A stretch of 64,000 nt of DNA, from NCBI GenBank assembly GCA_963845755.1, contig CAWJTV010000027.1, positions 64,001 to 128,000 of the forward strand. The letters run 5' to 3'. Source of the DNA: an uncultured Planctomycetota bacterium. GTDB taxonomy: Bacteria > Planctomycetota > Planctomycetia > Isosphaerales > Isosphaeraceae. A program made the position numbers and the translations under genes. Positions 1 through 49,441 of this stretch are shown here, one piece after another. The notes under the pieces are model-generated. The model was not told the DNA's origin. It saw only the letters and a program-made list of their open reading frames with translations, and searched no databases. The first letter of the stretch is position 1. Each line of letters opens with the position of its first letter.

Positions 1-556
1 GGGCGACTGGATCGCGACGCTCGACGCCGACTTGCAGAACGACCCGGCCGACCTGGTGCGGCTCTGGGAGGCCCTGCCCGGCCACGACGCCGTTCTGGGC
101 TGGCGGGTGAAGCGCCATGATGTCTGGTCCAGGCGGATGATCAGCCGATGGGCGAACCGGGTGCGCAACGGATTGTTGGGCCAGTCGATCCGCGACACGG
201 GCTGTTCGGTCCGGATCTTCCCCCGTGCGGTGGCGTTGCGGCTGCCGGGGTTCCGGGGCGTCCATCGGTTCTTCGGTCCGCTGTTGTTGCGGGAGGGATG
301 CCGGCTGGTCCAGGTGCCGGTCGGCCACCGGTCCCGTCCGCACGGCCGGTCGCACTACAACCTGTGGAACCGGTCGATCCAGGTGGTCGTGGACTTGCTC
401 GGGGTCGTCTGGCTGTTGCGCCGGCCATTGCGGTATCAGGTGGTCCAGGCATGGGATGCCCATAAGGCGGATGCCACCCCGACAGAAGAGGGACAGGCAC
501 CTCCAAGACGCGGAGGCAGTCCCCCTTTTGTCGGGGCCTGTTACCCGGAGGACTGA
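1..556 (+). CDS. Glycosyltransferase family 2 (polyprenol-phosphate glycosyltransferase/ArnC-like), 5' end outside the window
   Basis: Frame opens before base 1. It shows the DADLQNDP DxD motif, then 'VLGWRVKRHD', 'DTGCS' and 'HRFFGPLL', and is followed by a LAB_N gene. Confidence 0.85.
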   Translation, partial: GDWIATLDADLQNDPADLVRLWEALPGHDAVLGWRVKRHDVWSRRMISRWANRVRNGLLGQSIRDTGCSVRIFPRAVALRLPGFRGVHRFFGPLLLREGCRLVQVPVGHRSRPHGRSHYNLWNRSIQVVVDLLGVVWLLRRPLRYQVVQAWDAHKADATPTEEGQAPPRRGGSPPFVGACYPED

Positions 557-559
557 CAC

Positions 560-844
560 GTGTCGTATCCGGCGTTCTGGCTGACGATCGGCTTTCTGGG
601 TCAGGGTTTTTTCACGGCGCGGTTCCTGGTCCAGTGGATCGTCTCAGAGAAACAGCGCGATGCGGTGGTGCCCGTGGCGTTCTGGTGGCTGAGCCTGCTG
701 GGCGGCGCGGCACTGTTGTCCTACGCGATCTCCCGACGCGACCCGGTGATCATCGTCGGTCAGTCGATGGGGATGTTCATCTACGTGCGGAACTTGATGC
801 TGATCGACAAGGCGCGGCGTCGGGAGACGGCTAATGGCGCGTAA
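560..844 (+). CDS. Lipid-A-disaccharide synthase N-terminal (LAB_N) domain membrane protein
   Basis: 'GFLGQGFFTARFLVQWIVSEK...VVPVAFWWLSLLGGAALLSYAI...DPVIIVGQ...IYVRNL' is the LAB_N signature. Confidence 0.88.
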   Translation: MSYPAFWLTIGFLGQGFFTARFLVQWIVSEKQRDAVVPVAFWWLSLLGGAALLSYAISRRDPVIIVGQSMGMFIYVRNLMLIDKARRRETANGA

Positions 845-36134: not shown

Positions 36135-36452
36135 TCAACCCCGGAACTTGGTCTTGGGGGCCTTTTCCACCAACTGGTGCAGGGTGTGCATGATGTTGTA
36201 GGCCGAGAGCTCGCAGAGCAGGTGCGTCACCTCTTCGTGGATCTCGTCGCCGAGCTTGGGCTCGACGGCCTTCATCAGCGCGACGACGCGGGCTTCCTGC
36301 TCCTTGAGTTCATGGGCCTCGATGCGGCCGTCGGCCATCGCGTCCAGGAACGTCCCGAGCCGTTCCGCGTACTGGCCGATCAGCGGCGTGTCGGCTGTCG
36401 CGTCCAGCCAATCGGTGCGATGCTTGCCTGCGGTGTCGGTCTTCTTGCTCAT
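36135..36452 (-). CDS. Small helical hypothetical protein (105 aa), last gene of the PspA operon
   Basis: 'MSKKTDTAGKHRTDWLD...FLDAMADGRIEAHELKEQE...LLCELSAYNIM' has strong coding bias and is co-oriented with the AAA gene. Confidence 0.8.
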   Translation of the reverse strand: MSKKTDTAGKHRTDWLDATADTPLIGQYAERLGTFLDAMADGRIEAHELKEQEARVVALMKAVEPKLGDEIHEEVTHLLCELSAYNIMHTLHQLVEKAPKTKFRG

Positions 36453-36514
36453 GGGGTTCGCCTCGTCTAGGTGATCGGATCTTCGTTCAGAGGATGTGAA
36501 AGGAGCGGGAAATC

Positions 36515-36578
36515 TTCGAGATTCCGGATTCGAGATTCCGGATTCGAGATTCCGGATTTCGAGATTCCGGATTCGAGA
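36515..36578. repeat. Tandem repeat (TTCGAGATTCCGGA) x4.5
   Basis: Four 14-bp units (one extra T) plus TTCGAGA, each unit made of two related heptamers. Intergenic. Confidence 0.9.
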
Positions 36579-36669
36579 TAGAGCGAACGGAAAACCTGGG
36601 GCACACAGGACCAACATTTATTTTCTCTCTTGAATTTGTGCTTCTGAATCGATCTTCCACGTCTTTCGT

Positions 36670-38496
36670 TCACTCTTCGATCAATCGTCGGATCGCGGCC
36701 ATCCGTTCCTGGAGCTGGGCTCGCCCGTCGGGCCCGGCCACGCGCGCCTGCCACTCCTCGGGCAGGAAGGACCTCGACGTGCACTCCAGGACCGCCGCCA
36801 GCTCTTGCTTCTCCTTCTCCAGCCCCTGGGCGGAGGGGATGAAATCGTCGAGGGAACCGGCGAGATCCTCGCGGGTGATCGGCTCGCGTCCCTGGGTCAA
36901 CGCATGGCGCTTGGCGGCCAGCACGATACTCTCGATGTCGGCCCCGCTGAGGCCGCGGCCGGCGAGGTTCTCGGGCAGGGCGTCGGGGGTCAGGCTGGTC
37001 TTGTTCTTGCGGGCCATCGCCCGGATCATGAACCGCACCTCGTCCTCGTCTCGTGGGCTGAACAGGGGCAGATGGACCTCGGCGCGACCCTGGCGCTTCA
37101 GGTCGATCGGCAGGAAGTCGGGCCGGCTGGTCAGGAGCATCCAGATCAGCTTGCCCCGGTATCGGGTGTCGCCCATCTGGCCGGCGATCATCGAGAAGAC
37201 CCGGCTGGAGGTGCCGGAATCCCCCCCGGCCTCGCGGTTGCCCAGCGCCGCGTCGGCCTCGTCGATCACGATGACGACCGGCCCCATCGCCCGGAGTACC
37301 GTGAGGATCTGCTCGAGGTTCCCCTCGGTCTCGCCGACGTACTTCGACCGGAAATTGCGGAGCTTGACGCAGGGGATCCCCACCGAGCCGGCGAAGCATT
37401 CGGCCAGGTAGGTCTTGCCGGTGCCCACGGGCCCGCAGATCAGGTATCCCATGGGAGCGGCGTCGAGCCGGCCCTGACCGAGCAGCGCGGCGTCCTCGGT
37501 GAGCCGGCGCTTGATCGCGTCGCTGCCGACGAAATCGTCGAGCGTGTGCGGCGGCTCGACGAACTCGACCAGGCCGCGCGCCTGGCGCTCGATCAGCCCT
37601 TTCTTCAGCCGCTTGAGGCCCGTGGTATCGAGCTTCCGCCCGGACTGGGCGGCGGCGGCCAGCAGTCGCTCGAGATTCGTCAGGTTCAACCCGCTGGTCA
37701 GCTCGGCCAGTTGTTGCGGGGCGAAGTCGGCGAGGTTTCCCGTCTTTCCGTCTCGCTCATCGTATCCCTTGATGAACCGCTCCCGCGCCGCGATGTCCGG
37801 CATGGGGACATCGAGGGAAGCCACGTGCGCGCTGCCGATCAGCCGCTCGTTGATCTCGGCCAGTTGGTCGCACAGGAGGCAGAAGGCGATATTGTGCTGC
37901 TTGATGTAGGGGTTCTGGGCCCACGACAGGAGCCGGACCAGCCGCGTCCCCTGGGTCCCGGCCATCTGGCCCAGCTCCGCCGAGGGGACCAGGTACTGGG
38001 CGTATTCGAAGATCACGCCGATGCTGATCTGTTTGGCGGAGTCCTCTTCCATCAGGATCTGGCGGACGAGCTGATCGAGCAGGGCGAGGACCGCGTCGGG
38101 GTCGCGGGGCCAGGACTTGGGCTCGCCGATCCGCTCGACCGCCTTCACGACCATCCGGCGCAGGCGGTCGGCGTCGCGGCCGGCGAAGACGCGGAGTCCC
38201 TGGCTGAGGTCATAGCGAAAGACGACGTCCCAGGAGCCGAAGACCTGCGTGGCCAGGAAATCGGGCAGGCTGCCGTAACCCGCGACGGCGCCGCCGGCCT
38301 CGGTCTGCGGCACGAGGTCGTGGACGTTGCCGTGGAGCAGGAACACGCAGGTCGTGCCGGCAAAGTAGAGTTCGGCGAATTCGCGCGCCCAGACCGGGTA
38401 CCAGGCAGGCACGGCGCGCGCCGGCTCGCCGGGCAGCGTCGTGGACGGCGCTGCCGGCGAGAGGGGCTCGTTCGTTCTCGGCTGGGTTGAGCTCAT
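36670..38496 (-). CDS. AAA+ ATPase, classical AAA clade, with degenerate N-terminal AAA-like domain
   Basis: Walker A 'GPVGTGKT', pore loop 'SKYVGETEGNL', Walker B 'VIVIDEAD', SRH 'TSRPDFLPIDLKRQGR' and 'LSGADIE'. The N-terminus has 'FLLHGNVHD' without a canonical Walker A. Confidence 0.92.
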   Translation of the reverse strand: MSSTQPRTNEPLSPAAPSTTLPGEPARAVPAWYPVWAREFAELYFAGTTCVFLLHGNVHDLVPQTEAGGAVAGYGSLPDFLATQVFGSWDVVFRYDLSQGLRVFAGRDADRLRRMVVKAVERIGEPKSWPRDPDAVLALLDQLVRQILMEEDSAKQISIGVIFEYAQYLVPSAELGQMAGTQGTRLVRLLSWAQNPYIKQHNIAFCLLCDQLAEINERLIGSAHVASLDVPMPDIAARERFIKGYDERDGKTGNLADFAPQQLAELTSGLNLTNLERLLAAAAQSGRKLDTTGLKRLKKGLIERQARGLVEFVEPPHTLDDFVGSDAIKRRLTEDAALLGQGRLDAAPMGYLICGPVGTGKTYLAECFAGSVGIPCVKLRNFRSKYVGETEGNLEQILTVLRAMGPVVIVIDEADAALGNREAGGDSGTSSRVFSMIAGQMGDTRYRGKLIWMLLTSRPDFLPIDLKRQGRAEVHLPLFSPRDEDEVRFMIRAMARKNKTSLTPDALPENLAGRGLSGADIESIVLAAKRHALTQGREPITREDLAGSLDDFIPSAQGLEKEKQELAAVLECTSRSFLPEEWQARVAGPDGRAQLQERMAAIRRLIEE

Positions 38497-38543
38497 TCTG
38501 AACTTGGTCCTGTCACGGATAGTCGATCTCAGAACGGACCCGA

Positions 38544-38969
38544 TCATTCATTCACGCGGAGACGCGGAGACGCGGAGGGAGAAGGGATATAACCATTGAC
38601 GATCCGACGCAAACCTTCCTTGAGGGTCGCGCCACCGAAGTTGATCAGCAATCCGACCGGAAGGTTCAACAGCCGTAGATACGTCAGCAGTTGCTTCGAA
38701 TGGACTGGGGCGAGGTTCTCAACCGATTTCAATTCTACGATCACGAGGCCCTCGACCAGCAGATCAACACGCAAACCTTCGTCGAAGTGCAGGCCGTCGC
38801 ATTCGAACTCAACAGCCGCTTGTCGTGCAACATGCAGGCCGCGCCGTTCTAACTCCCGCGCCAGTACCATCTCGTAAACCGATTCCAGCAGTCCCGGTCC
38901 CAGAACACGATGCAGCTTCATGGCCGCATCCACGATTTCTCCCGTAATCTCATCGATCTCGATCATCAT
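38544..38969 (-). CDS. GxxExxY protein (PD-(D/E)XK nuclease-like)
   Basis: 'LHRVLGPGLLESVYE', 'RVDLLVE..VIVELKSVE', 'HSKQLLTYLRL' and 'GLLINFG'. Confidence 0.93.
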   Translation of the reverse strand: MMIEIDEITGEIVDAAMKLHRVLGPGLLESVYEMVLARELERRGLHVARQAAVEFECDGLHFDEGLRVDLLVEGLVIVELKSVENLAPVHSKQLLTYLRLLNLPVGLLINFGGATLKEGLRRIVNGYIPSPSASPRLRVNE

Positions 38970-39042
38970 ACGGTTCTCACGCATCTCTGTGTGAATCGAG
39001 ATTCTGATGCGATTCTCTCCGCGTCTCCGCGTCTCCGCGTGA
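38552..39042. mobile_element. Candidate GxxExxY cassette bounded by a perfect 26-bp inverted repeat
   Basis: TCACGCGGAGACGCGGAGACGCGGAG (38552-38577) and CTCCGCGTCTCCGCGTCTCCGCGTGA (39017-39042). Mobility is inferred, not shown. Confidence 0.6.
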
Positions 39043-39078
39043 GACGAGATCCTGCTCCGATTCTTCCCCACAGGAGAC

Positions 39079-39837
39079 TCAGATTTCAGGCAGCGGCTCG
39101 AGCGTCCGGGCCGCGGGGCCCAGCTCCTTGGCCGACTGCGACGCCTTGGTTGTCTCGGGCGTGACGAGTCCGGCCTGCTTCTCGAACTCTCGCAGCGCGT
39201 CCTCGGCCATCGTCTTCTCCACGGCGATGTCGCGCTGGATGTCTTCCAGGCCCTCGCCTGACATGTCGGCCGCGACCCGGACCCGAGCCCGGTTGCGGTC
39301 GATCTGCCCCTGGAGCTCCTGCTCGGCCTGGCCGAAGTCGGTGGTGACGTCGAAATGGAACTGGTTGGCGAGCTGGGCAATCTCCGCTTCGGCCCGGCTC
39401 ATCTTGAGGTCGGCGTCGTACTTGCTGATCTTGTGCTTCACCTCGTCGAGCTTCTTGACCGCATGCTGGATCTTCAACAGGTTGTTCTGATACGCCTGCT
39501 CGTGCAGGGCGAGTTGCCTCTCGTTCTCGGCCAGGTCGTCCTTGGCCCGCTTCAGGTCCAGCGCGAACCTGGCCGCCGTGTCGCGATCGCCGGCGTTGAG
39601 GTAGGCCTTGATCTTCGCCTCGATCAGGGCGACTTGCTTCCGCTGGCCCTCCACCTGGCGGAGCACCCGCTCGACCAGCGCACGATACTGCGCCAGGCCC
39701 TCGCGGCCCTCGCGGATCTGATCGACGGAGCGGTCGTACTCCAGTTGCATCTCGGCGATCGGGTCATAGCCCCGGATCGCATTGGCCAGCTTGTTGAATT
39801 GCGCCGCGATGGCGTTCCAGAGCTTACCCAGGATCAT
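39079..39837 (-). CDS. PspA/IM30 (Vipp1/ESCRT-III superfamily) protein
   Basis: Amphipathic N-terminal helix 'MILGKLWNAIAAQFNKL', 'DPIAEMQ', a long coiled-coil hairpin with 'YLNAGDRDTAARFAL', and a C-terminal helix plus tail. 252 aa. Confidence 0.85.
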   Translation of the reverse strand: MILGKLWNAIAAQFNKLANAIRGYDPIAEMQLEYDRSVDQIREGREGLAQYRALVERVLRQVEGQRKQVALIEAKIKAYLNAGDRDTAARFALDLKRAKDDLAENERQLALHEQAYQNNLLKIQHAVKKLDEVKHKISKYDADLKMSRAEAEIAQLANQFHFDVTTDFGQAEQELQGQIDRNRARVRVAADMSGEGLEDIQRDIAVEKTMAEDALREFEKQAGLVTPETTKASQSAKELGPAARTLEPLPEI

Positions 39838-39851
39838 GGTCGCCCCTCAGA

Positions 39852-40055
39852 AAGGATGAAGGATGAAGGATGAAGGATGAGTCAGAGCAGATCGGATTTC
39901 GCTTTCTGCCTTTCTCAAAGTCCTCCAGGGCGCATTGGCCTCTTTCACCCCAACAGATTCGGAATGACATGCAGCATGCCGCGAAGGCTGATTCTAGCCG
40001 AAGGGGAGCACGTTTTTCCACGAGGAGGTCCGGACGATTCATCCTTCATCATTCA
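39852..40055. repeat. Heptamer tandem repeat (AAGGATG)x4 with inverted partner
   Basis: AAGGATG x4 at 39852-39879 and TTCATCC-TTCATCA-TTCA at 40038-40055, enclosing ~160 bp of non-coding DNA. Confidence 0.8.
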
Positions 40056-40070
40056 GATGAATCCTTTCCG

Positions 40071-43038
40071 TCACCAGGTCCCCTGTCCCGAGTCGCTCGA
40101 CCAGGTGCCGGCGCCGGTATCCGATTCGGGCTGGGGGACGCTCGGGGGCTCGACCGGGTCCGGGGGAGCCGAAGCCGCCTGGACGACCTGATCGAGGATG
40201 GCGCCGGCCGCGACCGCCGCGGCGGTGGCCCCGGCGCTGAGCGTCGAGCCGAACGGAGAGCCGTCGTGGCTGGCTTGGTAGCGTCGACGGTCGGCATCGG
40301 CCTGCATCTCCCGCCACGAGGCTTGCTGGACCGCGGCCTGATGGGCCTGGCGCGCATGCTGGACGGCCCCGCCGGCACATTGGATCGCCTGCTCGTACTC
40401 CTGGGCGTGGAGCAGTTGCTGGGCACGTTCCAGCGCGGCGTCCGCGCCGGAAGTATCCACGCTGACACCCATCGCGAAGTATCCTTGCGTCTGCTGGATC
40501 GCCCGGGCGGCGTCGGCGATCTCGGCCTCGGCCTGGCCGGCCAGCCGGATGTCCTCCCGGGCGAGGCGTTCGGCCTGCTCCAGGTCGTTGCCGGCATCGC
40601 GGACCGAGGCCAGCAGCCGGGTCCACTCGCCGCGCGACGTCGACAGGTCGAGCCCGACCTGGTCCAGCACCTCGGCGGCGGCCCGGAACCGCTGGTTGGC
40701 GGCGACCCGATCTTCCCGACGGCTGGACAGGAGTCTGGCGACGCGGTCGAGCTCCTGGCGTGCCCGGTCGTACTCCTCGCGCAACTGATCGTAGGTCCGG
40801 ACATCGGCCTCCGCCTGCGACTGCGCGATCGCCAGCTCCTCGAGGGCTTGCGACAACGCGCGGCCCACCGCCGACCAGTCGGGGCGGGATTCCCCGAAGC
40901 CGGCCAGGACCTCGTCCCGGGCGCGGAGGGCGGAGTCCAGGCTTCCCCGGGCGATCTCGCCGACGAGCGGGTCATGCTGGCGGAAGTAGCCCTCGACGCG
41001 ACGAGCGCGGGTCTCCAGCTCCCCGCGCTGCTTCTGGCATTCGGCCCGCGCCGCCGACAGAAGATTCAACTGCTCGCCCAACCCGGACATCAGGCGCAGG
41101 GCAATCTGTTGCTGCTGGGCGAGCTGTTCGAGCCGCTTCGCTCCGGCGAGGTATTGCTGAGAGCGGGCGGATGCCATCGTGGCGGCGTCCGCGGCCAGGC
41201 GGTCGAACGTCGCGACCAGGGCGCGCGTCTGGTCGAGGTTCCGCGCCACGGCCTGCCACGAGCTCGGCGCGAAGCCGCGCTGGAGCTCCTGGTGGTACGA
41301 CTCGGCCTGCGGGATCGCCGAGCGCAGGCGCTCGGTCTCCCGCTGTCGGCCCGCTTGTTCCCGCTCGCAGTACGCCCGGGCCTTCTGGACCTGCTCGACG
41401 ACGCTCCGGGCTTGATCGAGCATCGACCGCGCCGCGTCCAGGGCCTTGGCCGCCTCGTCGGGATTCCCCGCTTGCAACGAAGCCAGGGACTGTGCATGAA
41501 CCTGGTTCCCCTGTTCGAGGAAGGGATCCGGGTTCCCTCCTTCCTCGACCAGTTTGAGCCCCTGCGCCCGGTGATTGGCCACCTGCTGCTCGAGGCCCGC
41601 GAGCGCGGACTTGACCTGTTGCGCACCCTGGAACTGCTTCGCAACGCCCTCCAGCCGGCCGATTAGCCCCTCGGCCCGGGATCGCAGGGCCTCCAGTGCC
41701 GAGCCGGCGCCGATCGGGTCGGCCGTCAATCGCGCGCCGGCCTGGTCCGCTCCGGCGCCGATGGCCGCCTGGTCGTCCTCGTAGGGAGTCAGGGGCAAGC
41801 CCAGTTTCCGGACGGTTTCGAGCTGAGCCCCGATCCGGTCCTTGGCCTCGCCGAGGGCCTGGAGCAAGCCGCGCGCCGACTCGTGCGCCTGGTTGAGCCG
41901 GTCCATGTCCGCAGTGCAAGACCGGGCGCCCGTCTCGATCTCCTCGAACGCGCGGTTCTGCTCCAGCAGCGACTCGGCGTCGTCCAGCTTCTTCCGCTGG
42001 AGTGGCGAGATGACGCTGGCCGCGAGCTTCTGCGCCCGGTCGACGGCGTCCATGACCTGGAGCCAGCGATCCCAGAGCTTGGCCAGCGCGCCTTGCACGG
42101 CCTCATAGAGCGCCTGGGTCTCGCCGGTCAAGGGCGCCTGGAAATCCGGGTCGGTGGCCGGCAGGAGCTTGAGCCGCTCCTTGAGGGCGTCGAGTTGGTC
42201 CATGACATCGGTCGCCTTCGACCGGACCTCCTTGAACCGACTTGCCACCCGGCCCTTGAGCCGACGATGGGCCATCCAGATCAGGCCGACGATGGCCAGG
42301 ACCACCGCAATCAGCGACAGGCCGATTCCGAGGATCACCTCGCGGCCCAGCGATCGCCCCGTGTGTTCCGCGGGCATCGGCGTCTGTGCAATCACGCCAG
42401 GCTGCACGGTCCCCGGCCGATTGGACGGGACCGGTGGCGCGGGGGAAGTCTTGACCTCGGGCGCCGGCTTGGCCGCGACCTCGCGCGCGGCAACCCAGCG
42501 ATCGGTTTCCTGGAGCAGCGCGGCGATCGCCTCCGGATACTTCTCTTGCTTGGCGAGCTTGATGAACGTCGAGGAGCGCCCGACCAGGTCGCGCTGGATC
42601 ACATCACGATGAAGCCCCAGGTCTCGCAGGGCCGTCCCGGGATGAACGGCGATCTTGCGGTTTTCCAGGTCCACCAGGACGACGACCGACCGCTGGGGAT
42701 CCAGCGACAACCCCCGCGCCTTCGCCTGGTCGTGCCATGTCTCATACAGCGAATCCACGTACTTGATCTCGTCCGACGTACCGGGTCCCGACGAGCGCAC
42801 GATCGCCACGTAATACGTCTGCCGGGAGGATTTCTCCAGCCCCGCGATCTGTCCGGGCGAGCGCGGGATACCGATCGGGCACGCCCGCGACGTAGACCCG
42901 ACGGCCATCGAACGCAGGGAACGGCGTCTTGTCCTGCGCCCGCGATGGAGAACCGGCCAGCATCACCCCGAGAGCGATCCATGCGACCCGGCCGATCGGC
43001 CGAAATCGAACCCGGGTCGTCCGCATTGCCAACATCAT
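40071..43038 (-). CDS. TPM-domain membrane protein with very long cytoplasmic coiled-coil (frameshift near 42855)
   Basis: Signal peptide in ORF 42742-43038. TPM-like 'VVVLVDLENRKIAVHPG...FIKLAKQEKYPEAIAAL', TM 'VILGIGLSLIAVVLAIVGLIWM', ~650 aa of heptad-rich helix, and a low-complexity tail ending 'GQGTW'. Confidence 0.8.
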
Positions 43039-43719: not shown

Positions 43720-46700
43720 TCAGCCGGTCTCCGTCAACGTCAAGTCGTGATTGTCCCATACCGGCTTCAAGGACCGAGCGCGCGGTGGTGCCAGGCCGAT
43801 CTCCCTGGTGAAGATGCCGGTGTACTCCGCGAAGGTCAAGATCTGGAAGCTGGCGCCGACGGCGGGCACGTAGTTGTCCAGCAGCGACACTTCCAGGGTC
43901 CCGGCCAGCGTGGCGATGCCCGTGATCGCGAGCCGGCCATACTGGTCGGGCCCTGCGATCCGGATGAGCAGCAGGCCGGCCGCCGTCTGCGTGTAGTTCC
44001 CCTGGATGGTCAGGGTTCCGAAGGGGTCGCCGGGCTCGACCGTGGCGGCATTGGTCACGTCGGCCTGGATCGTGCCGGCGCCGGTCAGGACGCCTCCGCC
44101 GAGGTTGACGTTGGCCGCGATGAGCAGGCCATCGACCGTGGTTGTCCCGGCCCACTGGTCATAATTGGCGCCGGTGGTGCTGAAGGTGCCGCCCGCGGCG
44201 ATGATCACGGCGCCGGCGTTGCCGAAGGGGCCCTGTGAGGTCACCGTGCCGCCGCTCGCGACCGTGACCGAGCCGCCGTTGACGACCTCCGTCAGCGTCA
44301 TCTGGCCGGCCCCGTTCTGGGCCACCGTGCCCAGGTTGTCGATCGGGCCGGTGATGGTACTGCTGGGATTTTCGCCGGAGAGCGTGATGCCCTGGTTCAC
44401 GATCACCGTCTGAATGCCGTCAATGAACATGGTGGCGCCAGCGCCGCTCAGATGGACGGTGGCGCTCTGGACGAGCGGGCCGACTGCGAGGGTACTGCCG
44501 GTGCTGTCGAAGAAAACCACGGTGGCGTCGGCGCCGGAGACGTTCAGGTCGGTGTCGAGGGTCAGCCCGTTGATTATAAAGATGTTAGCATCTGAACCCG
44601 ACATGTCCAGCGTGCCGTCCAGGGTCACTCCGCTGAGCTCACCATAGAAGGCCACCAGGTCGTCAGGGCCGTTCGTGGTGATCGTTCCCTGGTTGATTTC
44701 GCCGTTACAGATCAAGGGACCGGTGGAGGCGTTCAGGACCAGGCTCCCACGGGTAATCGGGTTGTCCGCGGGGCTGTTTTCGATGGTGCCAATCAGGTAT
44801 ACCGTGTAGTCGGACAGGTCGAGGTTGGCGCCGAGCTGGTGGAAATGATCCTCGAACTCGTCGGTGCTGAAGTCATCGCCCAGGTAGACGGTGGCGCCCT
44901 TGGCGATCGCCAGGGTGCCGGAGTTTGTCCAGATGTAACTCGGATTCGGCGAGTCGCTCAGGTAGGAGTTGCCCAGGCTCACCGTCGAGGAGGAATCCAC
45001 GTTGATCGTGCCCTGGTTGGTCCAGTTGTCGTACAGGAGCAGCGTGGCGCCCTGGGTGGCGGTGATGGTGCCGTCGGCATTGTTCTTCCAGGCGATGTCA
45101 GCGGGGAAGCCGTTGATGTCGTAGGACCCCTGGCTGTTGAAGAGAACAACGCCGCCGTTGCTAACCTGGATGGAGCCGTCATTGATGACCCCAGAGATGT
45201 CGAGCTCGCCGGCAACGTTCTGCTCGATGGTACCCAGGTTGTCGATCGGCCCTATGATGGCGCTACCGGATGGATTCCTCATTGGAAATGGTGATGCCCC
45301 GGGCCAGGGTCACCGTCGGGCTGGCCGCGCCGTCGAGACTGTTGTGATTATCGATGCCGGCACCACCGCCGTTCAGGTGAATGGTGGCATTCTGGACAAG
45401 AGGACCCACCGCCACGGTACTACCGTCGAGGAAGTTCAGGTCGGCGCCGTCACCGGAGAGGTACAGGTCGGTGTCGAGCGTCAGACCGCCCATGACACCG
45501 ACGACGGGATAAACCCCGGGATAAACCCCCGACATATCCAGGGTGCCGTCCAGCGTCACGCCGTCGAGAGTGCCCCAGTTCGCGATCAGGTCGTCCGTGC
45601 CGTCCGTGGTGATCGTCCCCCGGTCGATTTCGGCCGAGAAGGCGAAGATTCTGGACCCCAGGATCAGCGGGCCGGTCGAGGCATCCAGGGCCAGGATCCC
45701 GCCGGTGATCGGATTGTCGGCGGGACTGTTGTCGAGGGTCCCGATCAGATTGACCGTGTACTGGGACAGGTTGAGGTCGACACCCAGGCTCTGGAAGCCG
45801 TTCTCGTACTCATCGGTGGTGAAGAAGTCACCCAGGTTGATGGTGGCGCCAGGGGCGATCGAAAGCACTCCCGAGTTTTTCCAGATGTCGCGGGCGCCGG
45901 CAAGGTTGAAGGAGAAGTTGCCCAGGCTCACCGTGGAGGCGGCATCCACCGTGATGGTACCGTTGTTGGTCCAGTTGTCGTACAGGTTCAGCGTGGCGCC
46001 GGTCGCCGTGATGGAGCCGTTGGCGGTGGTACTCCAGTCGCCCTGAAGGGTCAGGCTCGTCGAGGCCGGCACGTTGACCGCGCCATCCACAACGACGCCG
46101 TCCAGGGTGCCGCCCGCACTTGTGGTGACGATGGGGGAGGTGCCCGTGATGGTGCCCGCGACGATTTCGCCGCCGGAGAGGTACAGGGGATCGGTCGAGG
46201 CGCCCAGGGTCAGGGTGCCACCGGTGGTCGGGTTGTCCGCGGGGCTGTTGTCGAGGGTCCCGATCAGATTGACCGTGTACTGGGACAGGTTGAGGTGGGC
46301 GCCGAGGTTCTGGAAGCCGCTCTCGAACTCGTCGGTCGTGAAATCATCGCCCAGGTTGACGGCGGCGTCGGGGGCGATCGCCATCGTGCCGGAGTTTTTC
46401 CAGATGTCGCTGGTGGCCGGCGAATCGCTGGCGTAGTTGGCCGGGCTGCCGAGGCTCACCGTCGAGGAGGCGTCCACGCGGATCATGCCATCGTTGGTCC
46501 ACTGGTCGTAGAGGTCTAACGTCCCGCCCTGGGTTGCCGTGATCGTGCCGCGAGCGTTGTTGATCCACGGTTGGCCGGGAACGAGGCCGATCGATGCACC
46601 AAAGAAACCTGTGAAGGCGACAGCGACCTGGCTGTCAACGGTGACGGTGCCGCCCTGGCTGACCTCGACGGTGCCGTCGTTGGCGAGCTCCACAACGGTC

Positions 46701-49258
46701 ATCTGGCCGTCCGTGTTCTGCTCGATCGTGCCCTGGTTGTCGATTGGCCCATAAACGCCGCTGCTGGTGCTCTCGCCGGAGATGGTGATGCCGCGGCCCA
46801 CGGTCACCGTCTGGCTGGGGTCGTTGTTCAGCAGTGCGTTCTGGCCGGTGTTGTTGAACAGGAAAGCACCGGCGCCGCTCAGGTGGATGGTGGCGTTCTG
46901 GACGAGCGGGCCCGCTTCCACCGTGCTGCCGTCGTTGAATTGCAGGTCGGCACCCGAGCCGGAGAGGTCCAGGTCGGTGTTGAGCGTCAGCCCATCAACG
47001 ACCGCCACGGTGGCCCCGTCCGCCGACATGTCCAGGGTTCCGTTCAGGGTCACGCCGTCGAGGGTGCCGCTCGCCGCCGCGAGGGCGGCGCCACCCGTGG
47101 TGGTGATGGTGCCGCCGTCGATGCGGCCGCCGTTCAGGGACCAGCTACCGGTGCTGCTGGTTTGGCCCGGCACCAGCGCCAGCGTTCGATGCCGGTTGTC
47201 CAAGGTGCCGATCAGCTCCACGATGTTGCTGTCCAGGTCGAGCGAGTCGAGGTTGTGAGAGGTGTCGGTGAGCCAGCCGCCCAGCTCGACGGTTGCGTCG
47301 TCGGCGCTGATCGTGCCGTGATTGACCCAGGCGTCGTTTTTGGCATCCGGATCACTCGCAGCCGCGTTCCAGTAATCGCCCAGGATGAGAGTCGAGCCAG
47401 TCGCGGCCGTGATGGTCCCTCTGTTGGTCCAACTGCCTTCCAGCTCCAGGGTCGAGTTGTCCAGCGCCTGGAGCGTGCCGTTGAGCACGCCCCCGTCCAC
47501 GATGCCGATCGCGGTAGGGGGGACCGTGATGGTTGTGCCCGAAGACACGCGGGCGCTCTTGAGCACGCCCCCCATCAGGTTGACGAGGTCGCCGGGCCTG
47601 TCCGCCTGGAACGTGCCCAGGGACCCGCCGCCGGATAGATCGACGGTGCCGGAGTCGAGGTTCAGCGTCACACCGCGGGCCGTCACCGTGAGGCTCCGAA
47701 TCGTGTCGTAGCTCGTGATGGCGTGGTTGACGACGGCGCCGGCGACGTCGATCACCACGTTATCGTCGGGGCCGGGCAGGGCGGATTCGGGAACGTTATG
47801 CCACGCGGGATCCACCCAGGACCAGTTGCCGGGGTCATCCCAGTTGCTGTCGCCCGCGTCGCCGGTCCAGTAGAGGGTCGCCGGGGTCGCGGGGCGGCTG
47901 TCGATCTTGACGAGATCGGGGATGAGGTACTGCGCGTTGGGGGTGCCGAGTCCGGTCACGAGATCGTAGCCGGGGCCGGCCGAGTAGCCATTGTCGCCCT
48001 GGGTGATGTCGTCGAAGGCACGCGGATCGGTCTGCGCGATCTGATAGAGCGCGGGCAAGAGCTGGGTGCCGCCGTCGAAGGTGTTCTCTCCCTTCGCGGC
48101 CCGCGCCTGGTCGGCGATGGCGATCAGGGCGGCCCATTGCGGGGCGCCGATGCTGGTGCCGCCGAACTGCCCCCAGTGGATCTCTGGCGGAGAGCTCAAC
48201 GAGTCGTAGATCGGGACGCCCGTGAGGGGATCGGCGTCATAGGCGACGTCGGGGTCGGTGCGGTAGATCGTGGTTTGGGTGACGGCGCCCTGCTGGTACA
48301 GCGGCTGGGCCTCGAATTGACTGACGCCGCCGCCGCTGGCGATGTACGGATTCGGGTTTACGGGGAGGTTCGCATCGCTGCCGAGGCTCCAGCCGACCTC
48401 CTGGGAGCGATCCGGGTTGCCGTTCTGGTCCGGGGGCAGCGTGGTGCCGCCGACGGCGATCACGTTGGGCGAAACGTTCTGCCAGGCCGGTGGAGCGCCG
48501 AAATCGCCGCTGGACGTGACAAAGGCGACACCCTGGTGGCCGGCGGGGGTGGTGTAAAGGCTGTCATAGGCGTCTTCATTGTTGAACTCGCCGCTGAGGT
48601 CGTAGCTCATGGAGACGACGCAGACGTTGGGCTGGCTGGCCGCGAACTGGACGGCCGTGTCCAGGTCGTTGGGATAGGGACTGTCGGCCTGGACCAGCAG
48701 GATGTCGGCGCCCGGCGCGATGGCGTGGGCCCATTCCACGTCGATGCTTTCCTCCACGTCCCAGCCCGAAGTGCCTGGCCCGGGGACGTCCTGGGGGCTG
48801 CCGCCGTACTGATTGACCACCTGGAGGAAGTGCGTGTCGGTGGCGTTGCCGGCGGCGCCGCCGATCTGGAAGGTCTCGTCGAACTGCTGCACGTCGCCGC
48901 GGATGTCCGGGTCGCCGAAGGCATCGACGATGGCGATGGTCTCTCCTTGGCCCGCCCGGTTCTCGTTCGAGATGCCGGGGACCTGGTCGAAGCCATAAGC
49001 GTCGCGGACCTGAGCCGGAGTGTAGCCGGTGGGGCCCGGCGCGTCCTGCGGCCGTGCTGGGACAAGGTTGAGGACGGCCGAGGACGAGGCGGAGGAACTC
49101 GCCGCCGGACTCGGGTGGCCGGGCGGGAGCTTGGGGAAGACGGGGGCGGCGAGCAGCCGGCGGTCTTCGAGTTGGTCGACGACCAGGCGAAGCCGGGTGA
49201 CCCGACGCCCGGTCTTGCTCCTGGGTTTCCTGGACCAGCCCTGGAATGGGGATGCCAC
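43720..49258 (-). CDS. Giant secreted S53 (sedolisin-like) protease with beta-helix/passenger-like repeats (frameshift near 45280)
   Basis: AGGAG RBS and GTG 49258, then 'VDQLEDRRLLA'. S53 motifs 'EESIDVEWAHAIAPGA', 'SSGDFG', 'GGTSIGAP' and 'YDLVTGLGTP'. Repeats 'LYDxWTNxGTIxVDxxSTVSLG...LIGTLDNSPADNP'. Confidence 0.88.
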
Positions 49259-49441
49259 GGTGCTAGGCTCCTGGTTGGGACCGAAGATCGGGATGAGCAG
49301 TATGCCGGTTGCGTTCTGCGTGTCGTTGCCCGGCACATTCATAGTGCCGAACGGCTTGCCCGGGGCGATCAGCGCGGTGTTGATCACCTTGGCCTGAATG
49401 GTGCTGGTCCCGTTGACGTGGCTGATGACGTTCATCAACGA

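Follow-up and report, generated by a model that had tools for sequence, protein, structure and literature searches.

At the comparative genomics level, two settings of bacterial PspA genes are the closest described counterparts of the operon analyzed here. In the first, PspA lies beside a protein with two AAA domains, of which the N-terminal one is inactive, and a long operon has also been described that includes a protein with signal peptide, transmembrane (TM) segment and Snf7 domain (SIG+TM+Snf7), an ABC ATPase and a PBPB+OmpA protein (PMC11237479, mSystems 2024). ATP-dependent remodelling is proposed in the same paper by analogy with Snf7/Vps4. The second setting is the pspA-ydjGHI operon of Bacillus subtilis, with which PMC13713150 is also concerned and which Table S3 of PMC11237479 gives as PspA, a zinc-ribbon protein with a TM segment (ZnR+TM), the SIG+TPM_phosphatase+TM protein YdjH and a Band-7+ZnR protein. 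The passages on TPM in PMC11237479 mention that a long coiled coil can follow this domain, and no row in the available portion of its supplement (Table S3) joins TPM with an AAA ATPase. At the same time, a Vps4-like ATPase is said to appear absent from bacteria in a review of 2025 (PMC7619361), and a further review describes Vps4-like partners as absent from them (PMC10936438). A full-text search of one literature library found no experimental study of the ATPase with PspA. Here, an operon related to both settings is examined in a 64,000-nt stretch of DNA (the window) from an uncultured Planctomycetota bacterium of the Isosphaeraceae, which corresponds to positions 64,001-128,000 of the forward strand of contig CAWJTV010000027.1 (assembly GCA_963845755.1). 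The region under study is 36135-43038, and all locus coordinates are window positions.

The core of this operon, formed by a PspA-like protein, an AAA ATPase and a protein of 105 aa, belongs to a widespread cassette known from computational descriptions. The system is real and the window carries a lineage-specific variant of it. The operon is probably the Isosphaeraceae version of the bacterial cassette that couples PspA to a dedicated two-domain AAA ATPase, with the ATPase remodelling the PspA polymer. The minus strand carries every long family-supported open reading frame (ORF) of the region according to the ORF listing and the family scans, and in the direction of transcription the order runs from a gene for a TPM-TM-helical protein through the PspA-like gene, a GxxExxY insert and the ATPase gene to the 105-aa gene (Table 1). 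The four co-oriented genes, the GxxExxY insert and the intergenic repeats, first pointed out in a reading made from the letters alone (the sequence-only reading), were all recovered by ORF listing, Pfam and NCBIfam scans and repeat search.

Table 1. Features of the operon and of its spacers, in window positions and in order of transcription.
Feature	Position	Strand	Remarks
N-terminal fragment of the first gene	42742-43038	-	has the start codon, a basic stretch and a hydrophobic segment resembling a signal peptide; ends '...AQDKTPFPAFDGRRVYVAGVPDRYPALAR'; other frame than the 945-aa ORF
One-base frameshift site	42849-42860	-	one extra base compared with relatives; parts the signal peptide from the TPM domain
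945-aa ORF	40071-42908	-	weak TPM domain, Pro-rich linker, one TM helix, ~730-aa predicted cytoplasmic helical region
TPM-like domain	42501-42851	-	residues 20-136 of the 945-aa ORF; predicted periplasmic; PF04536
TM helix	42270-42338	-	residues 191-213; hydropathy maximum 2.9 over 19 residues
Spacer, 227 nt	39844-40070	.	inverted repeat 39857-39883 / 40036-40055
Divergent PspA/IM30 (ESCRT-III superfamily), 252 aa	39079-39837	-	PF04012 profile, PDB profile search, model, Foldseek
GxxExxY unit, ~490 nt	38544-39042	-	bounded by 29-nt inverted repeat 38552-38580 / 39014-39042, 97% complementary
GxxExxY / PD-(D/E)XK gene	38544-38990	-	insertion between the PspA and AAA genes
Two-domain AAA ATPase	36670-38547	-	database start at residue 18 (38496), 608 aa
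ATPase N-domain	residues ~50-330	-	weakly AAA-like
Active AAA module and lid	residues ~365-570	-	PF00004
ATPase catalytic motifs	37084-37434	-	Walker A, pore loop, Walker B, TSRPD, RQGR
Walker A GPVGTGKT	37411-37434	-	residues 372-379
Pore loop KYVGE	37330-37344	-	residues 402-406
Walker B DEAD	37252-37263	-	residues 429-432
TSRPD	37117-37131	-	residues 473-477
RQGR	37084-37095	-	residues 485-488
Tandem repeat	36515-36579	.	four copies of the 14-nt unit TTCGAGATTCCGGA; spacer between the ATPase and small genes
105-aa three-helix protein, no named family	36135-36452	-	conserved downstream partner of the ATPase

From 450 confirmed relatives of the ATPase in named genomes, the best 80 loci, all with full-length proteins 48-83% identical to the window ATPase, were analyzed by searching their six-frame ORFs with our own profiles; they belong to records titled Planctomycetota, Acidobacteriota, Myxococcales, Gemmatimonadota and, in one case, 'Deltaproteobacteria'. 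PspA is encoded directly upstream of the ATPase in 47 of the 73 loci with at least 900 nt of upstream sequence, and a helical protein with two TM segments (2TM-helical protein) occupies this place in 23 of them, so that the ATPase stands beside PspA or a TM-anchored helical protein in 70/73, as is described for the published 'inactive AAA + classical AAA' proteins. When at least 5.5 kb of upstream sequence is available, PspA appears within 6 kb on the same strand in 47 of 48 loci. The small gene is found directly downstream of the ATPase in 67 of the 76 loci with at least 500 nt on that side, and its position as a constant member of the cassette is supported. The very strong conservation of this neighborhood across phyla argues for a functional link between PspA and the ATPase. 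In the window, PspA is also located upstream of the ATPase, with only the GxxExxY insert between them. In two other planctomycete families the gene order is PspA, ATPase, small protein, solute-binding/OmpA protein, permease and ABC ATPase. A survey of 401 genomes of the phylum gave an ATPase match at E<=1e-40 in 75, and in the best 29 of these loci a PF04012 gene is directly upstream in 6 (the flank being only 1.5 kb) and an ABC ATPase in 7, one gene further up, behind a two-TM protein of ~290 aa.

Within the family of the window the picture is more irregular. Among 24 other genomes of this family, the ATPase is present in 6, the PspA-like gene in 7 and the first gene in 9, and several of the genomes without matches are 98-99% complete. 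G017, G015 (where it is divided between two contigs) and G012 (where frames are broken) keep the order of the window (G-numbers denote genomes other than that of the window, which is G000, and L-numbers denote loci). The TPM profile is matched anywhere in the locus in 5 of the 80 named loci, all of them Isosphaeraceae-like, and the TPM gene adjoins the cassette in all five, in two orientations: it is upstream and co-oriented in L081, L082 and L084, and in L080 (Singulisphaera sp. PoT) and L083 it is the next gene downstream and converges on the cassette. The synteny on which the sequence-only reading depended is conserved across phyla for the core of PspA or 2TM-helical protein, ATPase and small protein, but the four-gene order is not general, since TPM is restricted to these 5/80 loci and the order is broken in G001 and G023. 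There is evidence, in turn, that the anchor, polymer and motor modules can be shuffled.

The 252-aa protein is a divergent PspA/IM30, in agreement with what had been proposed from its letters. A profile built on 16 sequences of its family retrieves only Vipp1 or PspA from the PDB (10 of 10 matches, best E 3.7e-12), its close homologs carry PF04012 and are annotated as PspA/IM30 by the source databases, and the PF04012 cut-off is passed by 6/6 of the PspA genes located directly upstream of the ATPase in other genomes (43-73 bits). The AlphaFold model (mean predicted local distance difference test, pLDDT, 67.5; hairpin 80-94) places helices at residues 2-22, 26-81, 85-155 and 198-221, a layout of helix 0, long hairpin and later helix that corresponds to the PspA/IM30 fold. 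In Foldseek this model fits best to Vipp1 (7o3w, E 7.7e-4) and superposes on PspA 4whe with a template modelling score of 0.84 on the target and a root-mean-square deviation of 2.8 over 125 columns. The genome of the window encodes a second PspA that is canonical (PF04012 125 bits), and because a search with the window protein misses this paralog at E<=1e-5 the window protein represents a divergent branch. An extra C-terminal tail had also been announced for this protein: its first half, 'EDALREFEKQAGL', turns out to be the usual terminal PspA helix (compare 'EDELATLKGRL' in the canonical paralog), but about 28 residues beyond that helix are indeed additional. Residues F218, E219, G223, P227 and G240 of the tail are conserved in at least 90% of sequences, even in ATPase-linked PspAs that are 24-28% identical overall.

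The ATPase matches PF00004 with 80 bits at residues 369-493, followed by a weak match to the lid. Its five motifs are invariant across an alignment of 26 sequences, and the family match, Walker A and B, the aromatic residue of the pore loop and the arginines of the second region of homology are those of a classical-clade AAA; the KYVGE pore loop noticed earlier is intact beside an intact Walker A and DEAD. By contrast with this, the kinship to Vps4 that had been suggested was not borne out. Among the NCBIfam models, CdvC (NF041006) gives 42 bits (cut-off 650), below FtsH (56), PAN (62) and CDC48 (65.6 in the D2 region; cut-off 802), each of the four scores being far under the respective cut-off, and no Vps4 is present among the 60 best PDB matches to the ATPase. 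No Pfam match to MIT or Vps4_C exists in the protein at E<=0.01, which agrees with the sequence-only reading in that no MIT domain could be recognized. The best solved relatives are VAT/Cdc48, with an E of 7e-32 counting both stretches and the longer match on D2. Residues 1-328 have no sequence match in the PDB. When the profile of the N-domain was aligned with that of the protein's own AAA domain in hhalign, HGNVHD took the position of the P-loop and FEYAQ that of DEAD in Walker B, which weakly supports that the N-domain may be a degenerate AAA as in the published 'inactive classical AAA + classical AAA' proteins. According to Pfam, no protease domain is fused to the ATPase or encoded next to it in the window.

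The 105-aa protein belongs to no Pfam or NCBIfam family. Scanning of 12 orthologs against Pfam produced weak and scattered matches, the commonest to GvpG (4/12, best E 0.0058), and a search of the ESM Atlas gave no named cluster, most of its clusters being planctomycete. Its model contains three helices (residues 25-40, 46-66 and 69-97; mean pLDDT 64), as expected from its earlier description as a helical protein, and Foldseek with this model, whose pLDDT is only 64, found nothing in the PDB below E 1.1. In the 12 orthologs 21 columns are invariant, including an 'A.ADG' motif. A complex prediction of the ATPase (26-row alignment) with this protein (12 rows) scored 0.00, which is evidence for neither side.

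The first gene is the part of the operon peculiar to the lineage. At the whole-protein level, the sole Pfam match of the 945-aa ORF is a weak one to EzrA (21.4 bits, cut-off 39.6). After the TM helix come a basic stretch (HRRLKGR...) and ~730 residues in which A, L, Q, R and E abound, and both hydropathy and composition agree with the single TM helix and long cytoplasmic helical region of the sequence-only reading. The TPM-like domain, predicted to be periplasmic, is only weakly detectable: 5/5 orthologous N-termini match PF04536 at E<=0.1 (best 4.4e-6), and the match in the window covers profile positions 19-123 of 125, the absent start falling across the frameshift. The signal-peptide start placed earlier at 43038 exists as a segment, but it lies in another frame than the TPM ORF. 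In the ortholog of G001, a genome of the same genus, '...VYVAGVPDRYQSLARQIAELEKSS...' runs in a single frame that holds the signal segment and the TPM domain together, and a contig of a related organism from metagenome run X3 (depth 3.6) has one base fewer at 42854, from which it follows that the window contains a one-base frameshift near 42854. The extra base may be genuine or may stem from assembly. In orthologs the reading frame is broken elsewhere, twice in G001 and, through stops inside the matches, in G012, G008 and G010; a break is also seen in L084. The differing positions suggest, without proving anything, indel errors of assembly rather than decay, and such errors are a likely cause of these breaks in the long TPM-helical gene. 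An intact single-frame ortholog of 989 residues from stop to stop is found in L082. Three further ORFs of the window genome (C8:28606-29313, C7:53137-53664 and C40:69117-69623) match only residues ~169-410 of the 945-aa protein with 36-39% identity, that is, the TM helix and the juxtamembrane helices, which points to this segment as a reusable module. Kinship of the long helical protein with the 2TM-helical partner or with PspA was considered and discarded (BLASTP E 0.47; hhalign probabilities 2.0% and 1.0%).

The genes of the operon are separated by elements of a different nature. The GxxExxY gene is well supported by TIGR04256 (133.4 bits, cut-off 35) and PF13366 (PDDEXK_3; 131.3 bits, cut-off 22), and it has only two paralogs in the genome, both diverged. 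The arms of the 29-nt repeat that bounds its unit are built of GCGGAGAC units and occur 9 times in the genome, as opposed to 0 for the reversed control. The insert is absent from the PspA-AAA junction of G015, G016 and G017, and the unit has the look of a small mobile element inserted precisely at the PspA/AAA junction. Contig joints that skip it were not used, their sides being 20-27 letters long and lying within repeats. The insertion point is the same junction at which the genome of the same genus is split. In the spacer between the PspA-like and the first gene, a ~35-nt element (TGAAGGATGAAGGATGA..., 39852-39886 and also 40036-40055) recurs in at least 47 further places of the genome, and in contigs from soil and wetland metagenomes the depth over it rises to a spike of 400-770, which together identify it as a very abundant dispersed repeat. 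Metagenome contigs span the operon region in short pieces only.

At the mechanistic level, the PspA-like protein would, like PspA and Vipp1, polymerize at the inner membrane on its cytoplasmic side, and the ring formed by the ATPase, with its putatively degenerate N-domain and its active, pore-loop-bearing AAA module, would pull PspA subunits from the polymer. Threading would probably begin at the flexible and conserved C-terminal tail of PspA, so that the polymer could be recycled, disassembled or remodelled. The three-helix protein of 105 aa may serve as a fixed cofactor or adaptor of the PspA-ATPase pair, and the protein with signal peptide, TPM domain, TM helix and helical region as a lineage-specific membrane anchor or sensor that would couple the periplasm to cytoplasmic PspA in the manner of YdjH. 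It would stand where other phyla have the solute-binding/OmpA protein, the ABC transporter and the 2TM-helical protein.

Several observations weigh against this scheme. Gene identities, folds and neighborhoods were observed; the functional steps (polymerization, threading, and the roles of the tail, the small protein and TPM sensing) we infer from gene context and motifs. Taken as a single sequence, the PspA-like protein reaches 30.1 bits with PF04012, below the cut-off of 33.9 (E 4.7e-7; profile positions 1-206 of 220), and the proposed HMM and fold check was thus passed by the fold and the family profile but not by the single-sequence HMM (hidden Markov model). The degenerate nature of the N-domain, which had been claimed outright, comes down to a weak collinear match, as hhalign aligns 195 collinear columns at E 0.0011 with a probability of only 20.8%. 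The window score of PF04536 on the N-terminal 170 residues alone (18.8-19.2 bits) is also below its cut-off (22.1), the TPM-region profile finds no TPM structure among PDB sequences, and the first gene is frameshifted in this assembly. In addition, the genes are not always together: in G016 PspA adjoins the ATPase, with the TPM gene on a different contig; in G001 C33 carries the TPM gene and PspA, and C12 the ATPase and the small gene, both sites being far from the contig ends; in G023 the TPM gene, PspA with the small gene, and the ATPase lie on three contigs; and in G010 PspA and the small gene are adjacent and the ATPase was not found at 68% completeness. Because the small gene directly follows PspA in G023 and G010, its partner could be PspA and not the ATPase. 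Moreover, with repeats and a mobile GxxExxY element interposed among the genes, their co-transcription is not assured. The link of the TPM protein to the rest is favored by its adjacency in two orientations and weakened by the frameshift and by the unlinked relatives.

One rival reading takes the four-gene arrangement in this genome to be partly happenstance or decaying, with a TPM gene that is no working part and may be a pseudogene. The frameshift between signal peptide and TPM domain, the insertion of the GxxExxY element and dispersed repeats between the genes, the linkage of TPM in only 5/80 loci, its separation from the ATPase in G001, G016, G023 and G010, and the homologs of the TPM gene in G008 and G022, two genomes in which searches found no AAA and no PspA-like gene, all speak for it. 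However, the TPM gene adjoins the cassette in 5/5 Isosphaeraceae-like loci, in two orientations, and also in G012, G015 and G017, an intact ortholog of 989 aa exists, the scattered frame breaks of the orthologs suggest assembly indels and not decay, and a protein with TPM and TM is the published neighbor of PspA in Bacillus (PMC11237479). On balance, happenstance or decay is a rather unlikely account of the arrangement. A similar degree of doubt applies to the idea that the ATPase acts not on PspA but extracts or unfolds damaged or mis-inserted membrane and envelope proteins in the way of FtsH- or Cdc48-type enzymes, PspA only sealing the membrane meanwhile. The AAA domain is about equally near the FtsH, PAN and CDC48 models (56, 62 and 66 bits), the solute-binding/OmpA protein, permease and ABC ATPase of the cassettes of other phyla point to envelope traffic, and the 2TM-helical protein replaces PspA directly upstream in 23/73 loci. 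Yet PspA remains within 6 kb upstream in 47/48, the tail motif is conserved among distant ATPase-linked PspAs as would fit the handle of a motor, and no protease domain is fused to or beside the ATPase in the window.

Two further readings go beyond remodelling of the PspA polymer by the ATPase. The more specific one supposes that the Isosphaeraceae rebuilt the cassette into a minimal four-gene outside-in machine, in which the TPM protein replaces the solute-binding/OmpA, ABC and 2TM-helical parts as periplasmic sensor and PspA nucleator, and the 105-aa protein is the adaptor, a counterpart of MIT/Vta1, that hands the PspA tail to the ATPase. We regard it as quite improbable; if true, it would be the simplest system for reconstituting a bacterial cycle of the ESCRT-III/Vps4 kind. 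Much less credible is a planctomycete-specific ESCRT-like machine for division or inner-membrane shaping in cells without FtsZ, which the sequence-only reading had raised. The names of close hits indeed place the host among the planctomycetes of the Isosphaeraceae, and proteins of the PspA family remodel membranes, but the ATPase was found in only 6/24 genomes of the family and 75/401 of the phylum, with several negatives that are 98-100% complete, and records titled Acidobacteriota, Myxococcales and Gemmatimonadota contain the cassette as well. Given this patchy distribution inside the family and the frequent occurrence in other phyla, a role in FtsZ-less division is not supported.

Some loci and flanking genes deserve a separate mention. 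In L069 (G408:C61, 7032-9963), from another planctomycete family, two NfeD-family genes lie just upstream of the PspA-AAA-small trio on the same strand. NfeD-family proteins are partners of SPFH/Band-7 proteins. In L019 (G026:C5, 2073-8687), a distant relative of the ATPase (658 aa, 28-30% identity) is followed by a family-less protein of 613 aa, a VWA protein and a protein with an OmpA domain; as it adjoins the VWA and OmpA genes and not PspA, the G026 match was set aside as a member of another family. The 2TM-helical protein was also compared with Snf7/PspA, and this likeness was not confirmed (hhalign probability 6.5%, with only coiled-coil noise in the PDB profile search). L074 (G023:C48, 5527-10730) contains a gene with FHA and Ser/Thr kinase domains, the PspA-like gene, the small protein and an 822-aa protein with a spermine-synthase domain, and no ATPase; its polyamine setting resembles one described in PMC11237479. 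Around the operon of the window, a Gln_deamidase_2 gene (PF18626; 34167-34757, plus strand) converges on its end, and upstream, at 43720-49438 on the minus strand, are genes for large, repetitive proteins of 520 and 1391 aa, neither of them matched by Pfam; these flanking genes are unrelated to the cassette. ABC, solute-binding/OmpA and 2TM-helical genes are absent from the operon and the scanned flanks, and no profile match to the 2TM-helical partner was obtained in the genome of the window (88% complete, 14.3 Mb, 49 contigs).

The importance of this cassette lies in the fact that the ATPase adjoins PspA in almost every examined locus across four phyla, while the reviews cited above describe bacteria as lacking a Vps4-like partner (PMC7619361, PMC10936438). 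What is at stake is how bacterial PspA assemblies are recycled, and whether the principle of a polymer plus an unfoldase predates the archaeal ESCRT system. The window adds no new principle. The pairings of PspA with AAA and with TPM were already on record, since both the dyad and the TPM+TM neighbor of Bacillus are described in PMC11237479. What the window contributes is a four-gene variant of compact form, a conserved small partner not named in the passages on the dyad in that paper, and evidence for the shuffling of anchor, polymer and motor modules.

Compared with the known systems, the operon shares with the dyad of PMC11237479 a PspA gene beside an AAA ATPase of two domains, the N-terminal one without its motifs, and also the predicted ATP-dependent remodelling on the model of Snf7/Vps4; the 105-aa partner goes unnamed in the passages on the dyad. 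Like in the long form of that paper, members of the window ATPase family adjoin 2TM-helical, ABC ATPase and solute-binding/OmpA genes in other loci, whereas the window itself has in their stead the TPM, TM and long helical protein. With the Bacillus pspA-ydjGHI operon it has in common a protein with signal sequence, TPM and TM encoded next to PspA, here YdjH-like in joining the three in one protein, although with a weak TPM score and a shifted frame. The helical tail of ~730 residues sets the window protein apart from that system, the AAA ATPase is found only in the window when set against the Bacillus row of Table S3, and the Band-7/SPFH and zinc-ribbon proteins were not found in the operon or its scanned flanks, the whole genome not having been searched for them. 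In relation to Cdc48/VAT/p97, which provide its best solved sequence matches, the window ATPase is likewise built in two tiers and carries its pore loop in the C-terminal one, but its first tier is devoid of Walker motifs and no double-psi-barrel N-domain was detected. Unlike Vps4/CdvC, it has no MIT or Vps4 C-terminal match and possesses an extra N-domain that appears degenerate. Even so, as in ESCRT-III with Vps4/CdvC, a gene of the ESCRT-III superfamily adjoins a classical-clade AAA with pore loop and arginine-finger region, and, like in ESCRT-III, the handle could be a flexible tail at the C-terminus of the polymer subunit.

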